Positions 11,361-16,778 of a stretch of 64,000 nucleotides of DNA are shown piece by piece. Source of the DNA: an uncultured Prevotella sp. (GTDB lineage: Bacteria; Bacillota; Clostridia; Oscillospirales; Acutalibacteraceae). The translations under genes and the position numbers were made by a program. Each line of letters begins with the position of its first letter. Position 1 is the stretch's first letter. The notes beneath the pieces were generated by a model that was not told the origin of the DNA, made no database searches, and saw only the letters and a list, made by a program, of their open reading frames with translations. The stretch lies in NCBI GenBank assembly GCA_963621245.1, contig CAVFCW010000004.1, forward strand, positions 54,286 through 118,285. The letters are read 5' to 3'.

Positions 11361-12230
11361 ATGCCTGTTAATTTTAAGAACTTCTTCAAGCCGAATTCAC
11401 ACGATAAGCAGGAACCCGAGGTTCATTCTGCCGCCGGTGTTGAGGACGGTTCTGCGGAAGCAAAAAAGACTTGCCCCGAATGCGGTAAGGAAACTCCCGA
11501 GGGAGAGCTTTGGGAGAATTTAAACGTATGCGAATGCGGTCATCATTTCAGAATGAATGCTCGCCAGAGAGTTGCATATTTAATCGGCAACGGTAAATTT
11601 GAGGAGCTGGACGAGGATATGAGCAGCAGCAATGTTCTCGATTTCCCGGGCTACGATGCAAAGCTTTCAAGCGCAAAGCTTCATTCTCACGAGAAAGAAT
11701 CCGTCATCGCGGGCGTTTGTGAGATTGGCGGAATAAAAACCGCACTTTTCGTCATGAACTCCGAGTTTATGATGGGAAGCATGGGTTCCGTTTGCGGCGA
11801 GAAAATCACAAGACTTTTTGAGTATGCAACATCAAACAAGCTCCCCGTAGTCGGTTATACCGTTTCGGGCGGCGCAAGAATGCAGGAGGGAATACTCTCC
11901 CTTATGCAGATGGCTAAAACAAGTGCGGCTGTAAGAAAGCACTCCGATGAGGGACTTCTCTACATTGCCGTTCTCACCGATCCGACCACAGGCGGCGTTA
12001 CCGCAAGCTTTGCCATGGAGGGAGATATTATTCTCGCCGAGCCCAAGGCAACCGTCGGTTTTGCCGGAAGAAGAGTTATCGAGCAGACCATAAGCAAGAA
12101 ACTTCCAAAGGAATTCCAGAAGTCGGAATTTTTGCTTGATCACGGTTTCATCGATAAAATAGTTCCGAGAAACGAGCAGAGAGAAGTCCTCTCTGAACTC
12201 TTGAAAATGCATGTGGGAGGTGCCGACTGA
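11361..12230 (+). CDS. accD: acetyl-CoA carboxylase carboxyltransferase beta subunit
   Basis: N-terminal zinc ribbon CPECG..CECGHHFRM, followed by the carboxyltransferase fold (GGARMQEG). Confidence 0.93.
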   Translation: MPVNFKNFFKPNSHDKQEPEVHSAAGVEDGSAEAKKTCPECGKETPEGELWENLNVCECGHHFRMNARQRVAYLIGNGKFEELDEDMSSSNVLDFPGYDAKLSSAKLHSHEKESVIAGVCEIGGIKTALFVMNSEFMMGSMGSVCGEKITRLFEYATSNKLPVVGYTVSGGARMQEGILSLMQMAKTSAAVRKHSDEGLLYIAVLTDPTTGGVTASFAMEGDIILAEPKATVGFAGRRVIEQTISKKLPKEFQKSEFLLDHGFIDKIVPRNEQREVLSELLKMHVGGAD

Positions 12231-12994
12231 TGACTGCTTATGAAAAGCTGAAAACAGCAAGAGGAAAGGGCAGACCTACCGGCTCTGACTATATCAACAA
12301 TATTTTCACCGATTTTATCGAGCTTCACGGCGACAGAAGATTCTCCGACGATCAGGCTATCGTTGCGGGCATAGCAAGACTTGACGGCGAGCCCGTCACG
12401 GTTATTGCCATCGAGCGCGGCAAGGATGTTTACGAGAGAATCAAGAGAAACTTCGGCTCACCGAATCCTGAGGGATACCGTAAGGCTCTGCGCCTTATGA
12501 AACAGGCTGAAAAATTCCATCGTCCGATTGTTTGCTTTGTCGATACGGCAGGCGCGTTCTGCGGCGTTGAGGCTGAGGAGAGAGGTCAGGGTCAGGCAAT
12601 TGCCGAGAACCTTTACGAGCTTATCGGACTCAAGACGCCAATGATTTCCGTTATCGTTGGCGAGGGCGGCTCAGGCGGTGCGCTTGCACTTGGCGTAGCC
12701 GACAGAGTTTGGATTATGGAAAACGCTTGCTATTCCGTTGTTTCTCCCGAGGGTTGCGCAAGCATCATCTGGAAGGACGCAAAGCGTGCCGACGAGGCTG
12801 CCGAGGCACTCCAGATAACAGCGGAGAGCATGGAAAAGCTCAAGGTTGTCGAAAAGGTTATCTCCGAGCAGAGAGAGCAAAGCGAGATATATGCCGATAT
12901 GAAAAATCAGCTTGAAGAAGAGATTAAAAACCTCAAAAAGCTCGATACCGATACTCTCTTGGAGCAGCGCTACAACAGATTCAGAGCATATTAA
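12230..12994 (+). CDS. accA: acetyl-CoA carboxylase carboxyltransferase alpha subunit
   Basis: ..FIELHGDRRF.DD.AIV.G..PVTVIA..RNFG...PEGYRKALRLM..AEKF.RPI..F.DT.GA. The ATGA overlap with accD suggests translational coupling. Confidence 0.93.
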   Translation: MTAYEKLKTARGKGRPTGSDYINNIFTDFIELHGDRRFSDDQAIVAGIARLDGEPVTVIAIERGKDVYERIKRNFGSPNPEGYRKALRLMKQAEKFHRPIVCFVDTAGAFCGVEAEERGQGQAIAENLYELIGLKTPMISVIVGEGGSGGALALGVADRVWIMENACYSVVSPEGCASIIWKDAKRADEAAEALQITAESMEKLKVVEKVISEQREQSEIYADMKNQLEEEIKNLKKLDTDTLLEQRYNRFRAY

Positions 12995-13016
12995 TAATAA
13001 AACAGTTTTATATAAA

Positions 13017-13051
13017 GAATCGTTTCCGAAAAAGGAAACGATTCTTTTTTT
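13017..13051 (+). terminator. intrinsic terminator of the fab/acc operon
   Basis: A perfect 11-bp stem, GAATCGTTTCC / GGAAACGATTC, followed by TTTTTTT. Confidence 0.8.
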
Positions 13052-13066
13052 CTGCCCTAAAAAGCT

Positions 13067-13109
13067 TGTCCGTTTTCTGTCCGCTTGGGATTTGTATAAT
13101 GAAATCACA
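13067..13109 (+). promoter_or_regulatory. promoter module copy 1 (TGTCC-N6-TGTCC-N12-TATAAT-GAAATCACA)
   Basis: The sequence is tgtcc gttttc tgtcc gcttgggatttg tataat gaaatcaca. The same architecture and spacing recur at 13529 and 14091. Confidence 0.5.
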
Positions 13110-13190
13110 ACAAAGGCAAGTAAGCCTTAAGAAAAAGAAAGAGATTATGAAAAAGACCTATACAAAAATTCAGAGAAAAGGAGAAACGTT

Positions 13191-13364
13191 ATGAGCTTTT
13201 ACATGAACAATCATATGGAGAACACAATAGGCAGCAACAGACACGAGGATACACTCATCAACCGTGAGGTAAGAATGCGTTACGGCATGGATATGACAAC
13301 AACGAGGGGAAGAAGATACATGGACGCTTGTGAGAACGATTCCTTCTTTCCTCAGGTACTGTAA
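13191..13364 (+). CDS. hypothetical small protein, 57 aa, hydrophilic, Met/Arg-rich (sORF1)
   Basis: AAGGAG lies 7 nt upstream of the ATG. The protein is MSFYMNNHMENTIGSNRHEDTLINREVRMRYGMDMTTTRGRRYMDACENDSFFPQVL. The ATG overlaps the TGA of a possible 15-codon uORF at 13147-13194. Confidence 0.45.
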   Translation: MSFYMNNHMENTIGSNRHEDTLINREVRMRYGMDMTTTRGRRYMDACENDSFFPQVL

Positions 13365-13388
13365 ATAAAAAAGGAGCTAATATAAAAA

Positions 13389-13523
13389 ATGGTAATGGCA
13401 GGATATTTAACAAAGGAAATCGGTTCGGCGGTATATATGGACAGCGTGCTCCCGTTTGTGAGCATCAAGCCGAAAGAGAGAAAAGCAAAAATACCGAAAA
13501 CAAAATCGGTGAAAAACAAATAA
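13389..13523 (+). CDS. hypothetical small protein, 44 aa, Lys-rich C-terminus (sORF2)
   Basis: AAGGAG lies 12 nt upstream, which is rather far. The protein is MVMAGYLTKEIGSAVYMDSVLPFVSIKPKERKAKIPKTKSVKNK. Confidence 0.35.
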   Translation: MVMAGYLTKEIGSAVYMDSVLPFVSIKPKERKAKIPKTKSVKNK

Positions 13524-13528
13524 AAATT

Positions 13529-13571
13529 TGTCCGATAATTGTCCTATCGGATGGGGTAAAATAAAATCACA
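13529..13571 (+). promoter_or_regulatory. promoter module copy 2 (TGTCC-N6-TGTCC-N12-TAAAAT-AAAATCACA)
   Basis: The sequence is tgtcc gataat tgtcc tatcggatgggg taaaat aaaatcaca. It can also be read as TTGTCC-17-TAAAAT (13539-13544 and 13562-13567). Confidence 0.5.
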
Positions 13572-13612
13572 TTAAAGAACAAAAACAACTTAAAAAAGAG
13601 GAGTAAAAACTT

Positions 13613-13726
13613 ATGATTCATGCGGTAGTTTTGGGAGCAATATTCGGAGCATATTTCACATACATAATTGCTTCACTTATTTATAACGCAGTTACGGAGA
13701 ATAAAGAAGAAACAGTAGGCGCATAA
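13613..13726 (+). CDS. hypothetical small membrane peptide, 37 aa (sORF3)
   Basis: GAGGAG lies 9 nt upstream. MIHAVVLGAIFGAYFTYIIASLIYNAVTENKEETVGA has one hydrophobic span and an acidic tail. Confidence 0.5.
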   Translation: MIHAVVLGAIFGAYFTYIIASLIYNAVTENKEETVGA

Positions 13727-13768
13727 AGACGAAAGCGCATACCGAGGTTTGAAAAAGAGGAGGAGAAT

Positions 13769-13942
13769 ATGGAGTTAATAGGACTTTTGGTTATGGCAGT
13801 TATTTCAGTGGTTATAATCTCAGCCATAGCATTTATAGGATTATACGGAATTTTCAGTTTGGTTAAATTCTTCGCAGTGGGAGCGGTTGTTCTCACGGGA
13901 GTCGGAGCTCTTGTGGGGCTCACGGGATTATTGATTGGTTAA
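13769..13942 (+). CDS. hypothetical small membrane protein, 57 aa, two hydrophobic spans (sORF4)
   Basis: GAGGAGGAG lies just upstream. The protein is MELIGLLVMAVISVVIISAIAFIGLYGIFSLVKFFAVGAVVLTGVGALVGLTGLLIG, and its second span is Gly-rich. Confidence 0.55.
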   Translation: MELIGLLVMAVISVVIISAIAFIGLYGIFSLVKFFAVGAVVLTGVGALVGLTGLLIG

Positions 13943-13953
13943 AGGAGGAAAAA

Positions 13954-14088
13954 ATGGATTTCAGTTTAGCGCACTTCTTCAGTTCGGTGGCGTCAAGAGT
14001 CATCACGGGAGTTATAGCATTCGTGATAGTCACTTATTTGTTTCCGGTTATCAGAGCGAGAAGAGAAAACAAAAAATTGAACGGATAA
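13954..14088 (+). CDS. hypothetical small membrane peptide, 44 aa (sORF5)
   Basis: AGGAGG lies 5 nt upstream, and the ORF starts 11 nt after the sORF4 stop. MDFSLAHFFSSVASRVITGVIAFVIVTYLFPVIRARRENKKLNG has one hydrophobic span and a basic tail. Confidence 0.55.
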   Translation: MDFSLAHFFSSVASRVITGVIAFVIVTYLFPVIRARRENKKLNG

Positions 14089-14090
14089 AA

Positions 14091-14133
14091 TGTCCTTTAT
14101 TTGTCCCACTCCAGGTGGTACAATAAAATCACA
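14091..14133 (+). promoter_or_regulatory. promoter module copy 3 (TGTCC-N6-TGTCC-N12-TACAAT-AAAATCACA)
   Basis: The sequence is tgtcc tttatt tgtcc cactccaggtgg tacaat aaaatcaca. It can also be read as TTGTCC-17-TAAAAT (14101-14106 and 14124-14129). Confidence 0.5.
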
Positions 14134-14177
14134 GTAAAGAACAAAACAAAAACAATAAATCAAAAAGGAGAAAAAAC

Positions 14178-14288
14178 ATGAGTTTGGGAACAGCACACAT
14201 CATATACACGGCACTGACAAGCATAGTCACCGTCATCATCGTAACAAAGCTTCTCACTTACATTGAGAGCAAGTATCCGACAAAATAA
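14178..14288 (+). CDS. hypothetical small membrane peptide, 36 aa (sORF6)
   Basis: AAGGAG lies 7 nt upstream. The protein is MSLGTAHIIYTALTSIVTVIIVTKLLTYIESKYPTK. Its N-terminus (SL..AH) and ..TY.. motif resemble sORF5. Confidence 0.5.
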   Translation: MSLGTAHIIYTALTSIVTVIIVTKLLTYIESKYPTK

Positions 14289-14398
14289 AACATCTTAAAA
14301 TTAAAACAATTTAAAAATTAAAAAATCAAAACACTTTTCACTAAAATAATTATTTAAATTCATCTAATCAAAAATTAAAAAAAGAGAGGTAACAAATT

Positions 14399-15091
14399 AT
14401 GAAGTATCAGATTCAGGGAGACAACTTACCGGTAGTAATATGCGAGCTCGATCAGAATGAGAGCATGGTAACACAGGACGGCGGAATGTCCTGGATGTCA
14501 CCCAACATGGAAATGAAAACAACAACAAACGGCGGTTTTAAGAAGGCATTCGGAAGAATGTTCTCAGGCGCCAAGATGTTCCAGAATATATACACAGCAA
14601 GAGACAGCGGCGGAATGATTGCATTTGCTTCCGATTTCCCCGGCTCAATCAGAGCGTTCGATATCGCCCCCGGCAACGAGATGATTTTGCAGAAGAGAGC
14701 ATATCTTGCAAGCGAATCGGGAGTAAACCTTGACATTTACTTCCAGAAAAAGATTTCCGGCGGATTTTTCAGCGGCGAGGGCTTCATTTTGCAGAAGATC
14801 TCGGGCAACGGAACCGTATTTGCAGAGTTTGACGGCCATGTCGTTGAGTACGGACTCGGCGAAGGTCAGCAGCTTGTTGTCGATACAGGCCATTTGGCAG
14901 CAATGAGCGCAACATGCAGCATTGAGATTAAGGGCGTTCCGGGACTTAAGAATAAGATTTTCGGCGGCGAGGGACTTTTCAACACCGTTATCACAGGCCC
15001 CGGCAGAGTTTGGCTCCAGACCATGCCGCTCAAGAATATGGCAGAGGCTCTCATGCCGTTTATGCCGCAGGCAAACGTAGAAATTAAGTAA
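14399..15091 (+). CDS. TIGR00266 / AIM24 (DUF124) family protein
   Basis: 230 aa. The pattern MKYQIQGDNLPVVICELDQNESMVTQDGGMSWM..GGFFSGEGFILQKISGNGTVFAEFDGHVVEY.L..GQQLVVDTGHLAA..GEGLFNTVITGPGRVWLQTMP is typical of this family. Confidence 0.85.
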   Translation: MKYQIQGDNLPVVICELDQNESMVTQDGGMSWMSPNMEMKTTTNGGFKKAFGRMFSGAKMFQNIYTARDSGGMIAFASDFPGSIRAFDIAPGNEMILQKRAYLASESGVNLDIYFQKKISGGFFSGEGFILQKISGNGTVFAEFDGHVVEYGLGEGQQLVVDTGHLAAMSATCSIEIKGVPGLKNKIFGGEGLFNTVITGPGRVWLQTMPLKNMAEALMPFMPQANVEIK

Positions 15092-15109: not shown

Positions 15110-15150
15110 AAACAAAGAACCGAGTCGAAATCGACTCGGTTCTTTGTTTT
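15110..15150. terminator. bidirectional intrinsic terminator between convergent genes
   Basis: An 18-bp stem, AACAAAGAACCGAGTCGA / TCGACTCGGTTCTTTGTT, with T-runs on both strands. Confidence 0.8.
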
Positions 15151-15325: not shown

Positions 15326-16498
15326 TTAGCTCTCCAGTAAATCGGAGATATAGAACGCAAGCTGAAGACTCATTTTGTCCTCTGCGCTAAACTCAGAACC
15401 GAGAATTTCTTTTATTCTCTTAATCTGATAGTTAACCGTGTTTCTGTGAACATTACACTTAGCCGCAACCACCTGAATACTTGAGTTGCTGTCGAGATAA
15501 TCTCTCAAGACCTCACAGTAGTTCGTGTAATTTTTCTGGTCGAATTCCTCGAGTTTTCCGAGAACCTCGTTTTTGAAGCTGCGAAGCGTCTCGGCGGGAG
15601 TGACCGCAAGCAAAAGTCTGTAAACGCCCGTGTCGGCGTAATTCATAAGACGAACGGATTTTATGCTTGCAACTTTCATGGAAGAAATGCTCTGACGGTA
15701 AATTTCAGGAACCGACTGATAGCCGAATCCCACGCTCGAAAATCCGATTCTTATATCAAAAATAGGATTTTGCTCGACATATTCGTCTGCGGCGGCTAAA
15801 AGTTTTTCCGCAACCGTGTCGTGATCGATGCCGTAGAATATCATGATGAAGGTTTCGTCCTGAGTAAACATGCTCACCTGACGGGCGTCTCTCGCAAAAC
15901 ATTTCTGCATGAGATATTTAAGTCCGAGGTAATCGTGTCCGACAGGAACTCTCGTGTTCATAATAAGCTTTACAGCGGCTGTGCAGTAGCTTCCGTCATC
16001 GTGAAAACCGCGTCTGTCAAGAACAGGCACATAATCCTTTTGATTCTCCGGGGAGAAGATAAGGTTTCTGAATGCCGTTCCGAGGCTTATTTCAGATTCC
16101 TCGTTTGCGATAATTCTGTGACAGAAGTCATAGATAATATCGATGAGGTGAACGCTCCACGGGAGGGAGTAAAGCGGAAGGTGATGCTCCTCGCAGAAAT
16201 CGATGAGTTCCTTCGGCACCTCGGTGATGTACGGACCGAGGTTAACGCAAAGTCCCGCAGCGTTTTTTTCAATCATTTTCTCTGCAAAAGGAACAAGCCA
16301 GCCGAGGCTTCCGTACTTTTGCTGACCGATACCGGTTACAAAAAGCAACTCGTTTCCGTGAAGAAAATCGGGAACTTCAATATCCTCAACGAGGTGAACC
16401 CAACGGACAAAGCTTGATGTGCCCGCCTGACCCGCAAGGAGTTGCATACTGTATGTAGTTTCAGTGTTGTAGCAAAGCTGAGATAATGTAATAGCCAA
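15326..16498 (-). CDS. PucR-family transcriptional regulator
   Basis: The C-terminal PucR helix-turn-helix (VVAAKCNVHRNTVNYQIKRIKEILG) is preceded by a purine-catabolism-regulator-like N-domain. A TTG start at 16498 (giving MAITLSQL..) is preferred because AAGGAG lies 6 nt upstream. The track ORF runs to 16576. Confidence 0.8.
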   Translation of the reverse strand: MAITLSQLCYNTETTYSMQLLAGQAGTSSFVRWVHLVEDIEVPDFLHGNELLFVTGIGQQKYGSLGWLVPFAEKMIEKNAAGLCVNLGPYITEVPKELIDFCEEHHLPLYSLPWSVHLIDIIYDFCHRIIANEESEISLGTAFRNLIFSPENQKDYVPVLDRRGFHDDGSYCTAAVKLIMNTRVPVGHDYLGLKYLMQKCFARDARQVSMFTQDETFIMIFYGIDHDTVAEKLLAAADEYVEQNPIFDIRIGFSSVGFGYQSVPEIYRQSISSMKVASIKSVRLMNYADTGVYRLLLAVTPAETLRSFKNEVLGKLEEFDQKNYTNYCEVLRDYLDSNSSIQVVAAKCNVHRNTVNYQIKRIKEILGSEFSAEDKMSLQLAFYISDLLES

Positions 16499-16778
16499 GG
16501 TTTGCTCCTTTCCTGTATAAACAAAAAACGCTTTTACGCCCGATACGATATTCGGGATAAAAGCGCCGTTGCTCAATCATTTTTATAACTCAATTAATTT
16601 GACAATCCACAGTAAAAAAGCAAACTTCCAAATGAAATTGTGCTATACTGAATTTGTGAGTTTATTATATATGCATTTTTGTCAAAATGCAAGTCCTAAA
16701 ATGAATTTTGGCACAATATTCACAAAACCAGCTATGCAATATCGATTTTTTGAATATTTTGATAAAAGAACTTTCAGA

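Follow-up and report, generated by a model that had tools for sequence, protein, structure and literature searches.

Within a 64-kb stretch of contig CAVFCW010000004.1 (64,000 nucleotides from an uncultured Oscillospirales bacterium, referred to here as the window), a 43-bp module of the form TGTCC-N6-TGTCC-N12-TAnAAT-rAAATCACA occurs three times in the same orientation, each time ahead of small open reading frames (ORFs). What does such a repeated module do, and is its repetition the result of function or only of copying? The module is real and under selection, a promoter element of familiar architecture that apparently has not been described, and a search for published work on TGTCC direct repeats, or on arrays of micro-ORFs of this kind, found nothing relevant. 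A first description of this DNA, made from its letters alone (the sequence-only reading), had drawn attention to the three copies. Their coordinates and sequences were confirmed by direct checking, as were two further observations: that TAAAGAACAAAA, lying directly 3′ of copies 2 and 3, is common to both, and that small ORFs with a Shine–Dalgarno sequence (SD) lie downstream of every copy.

Exactly three matches to the full pattern are present on the + strand of the window, beginning at 13067, 13529 and 14091. The comparison with shuffled sequence that had been proposed for the motif gives a clear result, with three matches to TGTCC-N6-TGTCC-N12-TAnAAT in 64 kb, where 100 dinucleotide-preserving shuffles give an expectation of 0.00. 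Furthermore, a 51-position weight matrix, trained on sites from relatives and run over the window, scores the three copies at 50–56 bits, the rest of the window at no more than 8 bits and shuffles at about 0. Looser scans of the window, with one mismatch allowed in the box pair or two in the −10 and start block, yield extra matches at chance level. The three copies, each made up of two TGTCC boxes, a −10 hexamer and a start block, are as follows.

13067–13109, + strand: promoter copy 1; box 1 at 13067–13071, box 2 at 13078–13082, −10 hexamer TATAAT at 13095–13100, predicted start A at 13107
13529–13571, + strand: promoter copy 2; boxes at 13529–13533 and 13540–13544, −10 hexamer TAAAAT at 13557–13562, predicted start A at 13569
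14091–14133, + strand: promoter copy 3; boxes at 14091–14095 and 14102–14106, extended −10 TGgTACAAT at 14116–14124, predicted start A at 14131

Among these, only copy 3 has a canonical extended −10. The TG of copy 1 (13093–13094) adjoins the hexamer directly, which is a non-canonical spacing, and copy 2 retains only the G at −14 (position 13555).

Anatomy and conservation of the module

The full 43-bp pattern was found at 13 loci in five metagenome-assembled genomes (MAGs). Relaxing the discriminator raised the count to 48 unique sites (32 when redundancy is removed), spread over about 12 rumen, rabbit and gut Oscillospirales MAGs, together with two or three obvious chance matches. JGI metagenomes added one true copy (L116), their other five matches being due to chance. 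Viral contigs contained no match to the module, on which a phage origin for it was rejected. The window itself belongs to this order, its EF-G being at most 84% identical to that of Oscillospirales MAGs (e.g. Neglectibacter, Acutalibacteraceae, Oscillospiraceae). Four of the motif-bearing MAGs are syntenic with the window over accA, the array of small genes, an AIM24-family gene, a PucR-like gene and GH42, at 88–94% amino-acid identity. The public labels of MAG records CAVDQG, CAVAMJ, CAVIRL and CAVBOS (loci L001–L013) name Bacteroides uniformis, Bacteroidaceae, Prevotella and Lachnospiraceae; these labels are at odds with gene content. The records are syntenic with the window, and the EF-G of the window places it in Oscillospirales.

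The composition of the module was tallied over the 32 non-redundant sites, with position 1 at the T that opens box 1. The search pattern forces the TAnAAT hexamer, while the TG extension, the linker, A37, T39 and the leader are unforced. At −15 and −14, T26 is present in 26/32 sites and G27 in 28/32, giving TGnTAnAAT, an extended −10. Between the boxes, positions 9–10 are A or T only, within a T-W-W-W-T linker. Ahead of C-A-C-A, A37 is found in 30 and T39 in 28 of the sites, so that the conserved block at −2 to +3 reads T-C-A-C-A. Further features are a weak G-R-C at positions 22–24 and an A-rich stretch 5′ of box 1. At the expected place of a −35 hexamer, positions 6–11, the sites of the main clade bear no likeness to TTGACA. 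The leaders are 64% A and 6% T, with a predicted length of 24–94 nt.

Two minor patterns accompany these features. AAAGGA occurs near +8 in about one-third of the leaders and resembles a 5′ SD-like stabiliser, although this is speculation. In a subset of promoters in relatives (L001 2566, + strand; L008 6855, + strand; L012 5187, − strand), GGACA lies within N12 in the orientation opposite to box 2, giving TGTCC-N4-GGACA, and a weak form is present in the window at 13540–13553. Along with the weak G-R-C at 22–24, this sequence may represent a third, inverted half-site.

The spacing of the module is as strict as its sequence. In 278 kb of target loci, all 52 occurrences of TGTCC-N6-TGTCC, including six sites chosen without any −10 or start-block requirement, have a −10 hexamer exactly 12 bp further on, followed by the start block. 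Box pairs separated by N5 or N8 are absent from the same DNA, and the three separated by N7 all lie inside coding sequence. A control of 233 kb of Oscillospirales DNA contains no box pair, despite an equal frequency of the TGTCC pentamer. The 11-bp period of the boxes and the 12 bp from box 2 to the −10 are constant in all sites. Every true site is oriented towards SD-led ORFs, 24–94 nt upstream of them. The module has the −10 and, in most sites, the TG of a sigma-A extended −10 promoter, together with a position at the head of a unit, facing its genes.

Sites found without the −10 requirement have TATAAT or TATACT (TGaTATACT) as the upstream hexamer. This hexamer keeps both TA...T and the TG extension, which points to a predicted start at the A of T-C-A-C-A, 7 nt 3′ of the −10. 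The sequence-only reading had offered a different arrangement, in which box 2, (T/C)TGTCC, serves as the −35 and T(A/G)AAAT, across a 17-nt spacer, as the −10. The whole would then be an ordinary two-hexamer sigma-A promoter with a weak −35, and box 1 would be incidental. Copies 2 and 3 do read TTGTCC-17-TAAAAT, with nine of 12 consensus matches. The arrangement fares poorly across the sites, however, since the hexamer that it needs (positions 34–39) has the would-be A(−11) at its second position in only 20/32, with G in 11/32, and becomes TTTAGT in unforced sites, the upstream hexamer of which remains TATAAT or TATACT and has the TG. The TG at −15/−14 suits the upstream hexamer only, and box 1 is as invariant as the box 2 to which it would be incidental. 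We therefore give this arrangement very little credence.

Comparison of orthologous positions separates selection from shared ancestry. Copy 1 was followed in five genomes (the window and loci L002, L006, L010 and L011), where all differences are confined to N6 and N12. Copy 3 is kept in three relatives: L002 and L006, with the start block AAGACACA, and L011, in which box 1 has degenerated to TGTAC. Copy 2 is not present in the relatives (e.g. at the orthologous position in L002) and is thus lineage-specific. In most copies, including the three of the window and the sets of orthologues from different species, the spacers are unrelated and the boxes, spacing and start block identical. A cassette of promoter and leader that spread by duplication along with its peptide genes, with likeness reflecting ancestry and no dedicated regulator, would account for some adjacent copies in relatives, which are recent duplicates and near-identical even in their spacers (L001 2566 and 3285, before duplicated genes). 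Most copies have the blocks alone in common, however, and this explanation is scarcely credible for them. Unrelated spacers around identical blocks argue for selection on the blocks rather than recency, and the comparison supports the module as a selected cis-regulatory promoter element, not the product of recent or local duplication. This agrees with the sequence-only reading, which had argued for selection and had named conservation at the orthologous locus in related genomes as a test beforehand; such conservation is seen for copies 1 and 3, in which boxes, −10 and start block hold, apart from the small changes in copy 3, while N6 and N12 differ.

A protein proposed to act on the boxes

The strict spacing suggests how the module may work. 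We favour, at a probability of roughly 55%, a class-II activator acting on the tandem boxes of a sigma-A extended −10 promoter, most likely a protein of the OmpR/PhoB winged-helix type. The core promoter would belong to the housekeeping sigma (sigma-A type) and to the extended −10 class, lacking a −35 hexamer. Its −35 region (about −41 to −25) would be made up of the two TGTCC boxes, on the same helix face and exactly 11 bp apart, with their A/T-only linker. A trans-acting DNA-binding protein would sit head-to-tail on the boxes and touch RNA polymerase from a fixed position, which would make it a class-II activator. Transcription would begin at the A of T-C-A-C-A and lead into an A-rich, T-poor, unstructured leader of 24–94 nt and then into strongly SD-led tiny ORFs. 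Three tandem promoters in the window would feed six micro-protein genes, perhaps with the AIM24-family gene as well, and in relatives dozens of micro-protein genes at dispersed loci would make up the regulon headed by the module. At locus L103 (4778–4830, + strand), three TGTCC boxes at 11-bp intervals precede a single −10, and this arrangement suggests that the binding protein is able to extend as a head-to-tail array.

The geometry of OmpR/PhoB sites, to which the sequence-only reading had pointed, is borne out by the 11-bp register, the A/T-rich 4-nt linker, the place of the boxes in the −35 region and the fixed distance to the −10. The register of 11 nt is divided into a core, yTGTCCb, and an A/T linker (7 + 4), and the pair replaces the −35. 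Correspondingly, the pho box consists of two 11-nt direct repeat units, each of seven conserved and four less conserved positions with the core CTGTCAT, on which binding is head-to-tail (PMC4415409; PMC3465305). For a Clostridium-class organism, there are documented cases of extended −10 promoters in which the −35 is weak or missing, and of promoters that depend on an activator and have no −35 (PMC7438776).

Several points weigh against an activator of this type. No regulator gene adjoins the copies, either in the window (Pfam search of 20 neighbouring proteins) or beside the arrays examined in relatives, so that we infer the family of the factor from the geometry of the site alone. No pho, pst or phosphatase gene lies 3′ of any of about 50 pattern-matched sites. 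The sites come from loci fetched by pattern match, which makes the sampling biased. The conserved start block is foreign to the OmpR/PhoB paradigm. Finally, the −10 departs little from consensus and has the TG extension at most sites; it could fire without an activator, in which case a repressor fits equally well.

A repressor would work in the opposite sense, with a constitutive extended −10 core and the TGTCC boxes as the operator of a direct-repeat-binding protein that blocks RNA polymerase until a signal arrives. CtsR, a repressor of Firmicutes that binds direct repeats (tandem heptads), is a precedent for this mode of binding. The footprint of the polymerase and the boxes overlap, most sites have a TG-extended −10 close to consensus, and extended −10 promoters function without a −35 (PMC7438776). 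However, more than 50 sites from diverged genomes agree to the base pair in the placing of the operator, and steric repression needs no such invariance. In no site do boxes cover the −10 or the start, and the lack of any TTGACA likeness at −35 in the main clade would be unusual for a strong repressible promoter. The exactness of the box-to-(−10) distance across unrelated spacers and diverged genomes thus favours an activator over a steric repressor, and we regard repression, the main rival, as somewhat unlikely.

A role in sporulation was also considered. The bottom strand of each box provides a GGACA core, so that the boxes could be SpoIIID-type sites at a mother-cell sigma-E or sigma-K promoter, with the tiny proteins as spore or coat components. 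Oscillospirales, the order of the host, includes spore formers. Elements at −10 for sigma-E and sigma-K start with CATA, with C at the position matching −14; in the module, −14 is G in 28/32 sites, the TG of sigma-A. The SpoIIID consensus is TAGGACAAGC (PMC11180830). Its reverse complement, GCTTGTCCTA, matches box 1 and flank (GCTTGTCC, the reverse complement of GGACAAGC, which prompted the comparison) in some sites, copy 1 among them. Beyond the GGACA core, however, the 10-mers match at 6.9 and 6.4 of 10 positions, where base composition alone predicts 6.3. SpoIIID, which binds DNA as a monomer, needs no 11-bp register, and no recognisable sporulation gene lies 3′ of any site. With flanks at chance level and a −10 of sigma-A type, SpoIIID was rejected as the binding protein, and a sporulation promoter of this kind is highly improbable.

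The adjacent PucR-family gene (15326–16576, − strand) was also rejected as the regulator, being syntenic and yet absent from other loci of the regulon, with no boxes 5′ of it. Upstream of this gene, at 16655–16669 on the − strand, TATAATAAACTCACA resembles the −10 and start block without TGTCC boxes, probably by chance, and TAGGACTTGC lies about 30 nt 5′ of it.

Likeness to known regulatory systems

Among the known systems closest to the module is the pho box of PhoB-dependent promoters in E. coli, along with OmpR-family response-regulator sites in general. Pho box and module both consist of two direct repeats in an 11-bp register and in the orientation of transcription, with a common TGTC core and an A/T-rich 4-nt linker (CTGTCAT-AWAW-CTGTCAY in the pho box, yTGTCCb-TWWW-yTGTCCy in the module), and in both a single motif marks a dispersed regulon. 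Sites of pho-box type stand in for the −35, about 10–12 bp upstream of the −10, as the module does too. The module differs in its core, which is TGTCC and not TGTCAT, in its strong TG-extended −10, in the additional invariant start block A-r-T-C-A-C-A, and in its targets, which are micro-ORFs with no pho or pst gene seen among them. It would be pho-box-like in its working and is not the Pho regulon, judged on the targets of the roughly 50 pattern-matched sites.

Other activator boxes have the same pentamer-N6-pentamer form, namely the spa-box of SpaR at the subtilin genes and the SaeR site, GTTAA-N6-GTTAA. The direct-repeat geometry (5-N6-5) is identical to that of the module, and in these systems, too, several promoters per organism carry the same box; small peptide genes are among the spa/nis targets, as among those of the module. 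Papers on the spa-box are cited in PMC8991943. In contrast to the module, these boxes have a different sequence and adjoin kinase, regulator and modification genes, whereas the module has no linked regulator or processing gene at the loci examined.

Peptide-pheromone regulons provide a functional analogy. Under BlpR, ComE, PlnC and AgrA, which belong to the LytTR family, many operons for very small peptides and small membrane proteins share a single recurrent promoter motif, as do the tiny-peptide operons of the module. Sites of LytTR proteins are 9-bp direct repeats about 21 bp apart (about 12 bp between them). The module has boxes of 5 bp with an 11-bp period, which rules out a LytTR site, and unlike the pheromones its peptides have neither a double-glycine leader nor a match in NCBIfam or Pfam.

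Sigma-A promoters of the spoIIG type, activated by Spo0A, have no −35 at normal spacing and are activated through TGTC-containing boxes near −40. The module likewise lacks a −35 and has TGTC boxes in its place. The 0A box itself (TGTCGAA) was ruled out, as every site has C at position 5 and variable bases after it, with no GAA. The ComR-box, GGACA-N4-TGTCC, has the opposite order of half-sites, and readings as a ComR-box, a CtsR site or an ECF-sigma promoter were ruled out on box sequence or geometry. The start block and the T-poor leader are outside all of the paradigms compared. They may serve to fix the initiating nucleotide, or to give the mRNAs of the regulon one common 5′ end.

Boxes of the same 5-N6-5 type also appear elsewhere, flanking a canonical −35. 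The variant TGTCC-g-TTGAC-TGTCC-N10-TGnTAAAAT was observed at L165 (7428), L132 (5234), L149 (2628) and L134 (220), all on the + strand, with about 25 similar loci among the matches listed. Its carriers are of unrelated lineage: low-GC MAGs labelled uncultured Bacilli, Tenericutes or Acholeplasma CAG:878, and one Eubacteriaceae MAG. The transcript that it drives measures about 50–70 nt, is closed by a terminator hairpin and matches nothing in Rfam. Two further loci on the + strand, L163 6701 and L147 3489, belong to one Ruminococcus MAG and one MAG without classification. Similar TGTCC boxes on either side of a TTGAC −35 lie there upstream of genes resembling those of phages (HNH endonuclease, ParB-like), possibly representing a phage operator built from boxes of this type.

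Tiny genes under the module

The surroundings of the three copies in the window form one cluster of very small genes. Upstream are accD (11361–12230) and then accA (12230–12994, named via its orthologues), the end of which is marked by a strong terminator, 20 nt ahead of copy 1. Six small ORFs of 57, 44, 37, 57, 44 and 36 amino acids follow on the + strand, each with an SD of GGAG type. The features of the cluster, besides the promoter copies, are listed in order.

13014–13047, + strand: intrinsic terminator after accA, a 14-bp stem then a T-run; start of a new transcription unit
13191–13364, + strand: small ORF A57, 57 amino acids, soluble; first gene 3′ of copy 1, SD GGAG
13389–13523, + strand: small ORF B44, 44 amino acids, with a Lys-rich tail
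13613–13726, + strand: small ORF C37, one transmembrane helix
13769–13942, + strand: small ORF D57, hydrophobic, about two transmembrane helices
13954–14088, + strand: small ORF E44, one transmembrane helix and a basic tail
14178–14288, + strand: small ORF F36, one transmembrane helix
14399–15091, + strand: AIM24-family gene (PF01987), kept 3′ of the cluster in orthologous loci
15122–15142, no strand assigned: bidirectional terminator-like hairpin 3′ of the AIM24-family gene, at the end of the cluster

The small ORFs are real coding genes under purifying selection, because codon differences to three orthologous loci are mostly synonymous (8–10 synonymous and 3–6 non-synonymous for A57; 11–17 and 2–3 for B44). 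They had no match in Pfam, in NCBIfam or in one homologue search. Copies 2 and 3 begin 6 nt 3′ of the stop codon of B44 and 3 nt 3′ of that of E44, respectively, and no terminator was found between copies 1 and 3. The copies are thus tandem, co-directional promoters within one cluster that reaches from the accA terminator to the terminator of the AIM24 gene. The AIM24-family gene is possibly co-transcribed with this cluster, since no terminator precedes it; an extremely A/T-rich gap of 110 nt (14289–14398) separates it from F36, and in all orthologous loci the gene lies 3′ of the array. The leader of copy 1 holds an upstream ORF of 15 codons (13148–13195, + strand) that overlaps the SD and start of A57 (an ATGA overlap) and is not conserved in L002. 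Rfam covariance models run on 12900–14500 gave no leader match, and their two sub-threshold matches both fall on the accA terminator.

In related genomes, nearly all target ORFs encode 20–60 amino acids and form arrays with as many as about 13 members, among which are paralogous families. The few other targets among about 50 sites are a GNAT gene, TrkH/TrkA and a secreted protein of 543 amino acids. The idea of three co-regulated units making up a small regulon, advanced in the sequence-only reading, holds as far as co-regulated units are concerned; the three units are one cluster with three tandem promoters, and the regulon is not small, because four close relatives carry at least 9–12 sites each, at five or more loci. 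Arrays at L001, L096 and L103 include signalling-like peptide families, each present as several tandem paralogues: a 25-amino-acid family, ...MLAEIPEPYLC(IR), and a family of 21 amino acids, MTSKTPLQKVHDFLIGSGIIH, similar to the short hydrophobic peptides (SHPs) of Rgg systems.

The architecture of the module, with tandem boxes in place of the −35, is textbook; the value lies in the regulon that it exposes and in the invariant start block. Most notable are the targets of the element, dozens of micro-protein genes that are absent from annotation and scattered over the genomes of an uncultured gut clade. The micro-proteins that gut anaerobes encode are an acknowledged blind spot. A wider proposal, which we offer tentatively and as a possibility rather than an expectation, is that an uncultured gut and rumen genus of Oscillospirales has a dedicated genome-wide regulon of dozens of unannotated micro-proteins of 20–60 amino acids, switched on by one tandem-binding factor, with the common 5′ end of the mRNAs (ACAAC/ACAAA...) as a second, post-transcriptional handle. 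The micro-proteins would include amphipathic soluble proteins, single-pass membrane proteins and SHP-like or autoinducer-like peptides. If this is true, the common 5′ end could serve, for example, in mRNA stabilisation or in recognition by an RNA-binding protein, and the regulon would be a peptide-based programme of antagonism, signalling or development without a described counterpart. If the activator reading favoured above holds, the 43-bp signature would by itself yield a complete list of the regulon for any genome of the clade, flagging dozens of real micro-protein genes that belong to no Pfam or NCBIfam family and are missed by annotation pipelines, and the single shared switch would make the function of these micro-proteins testable as a whole set.

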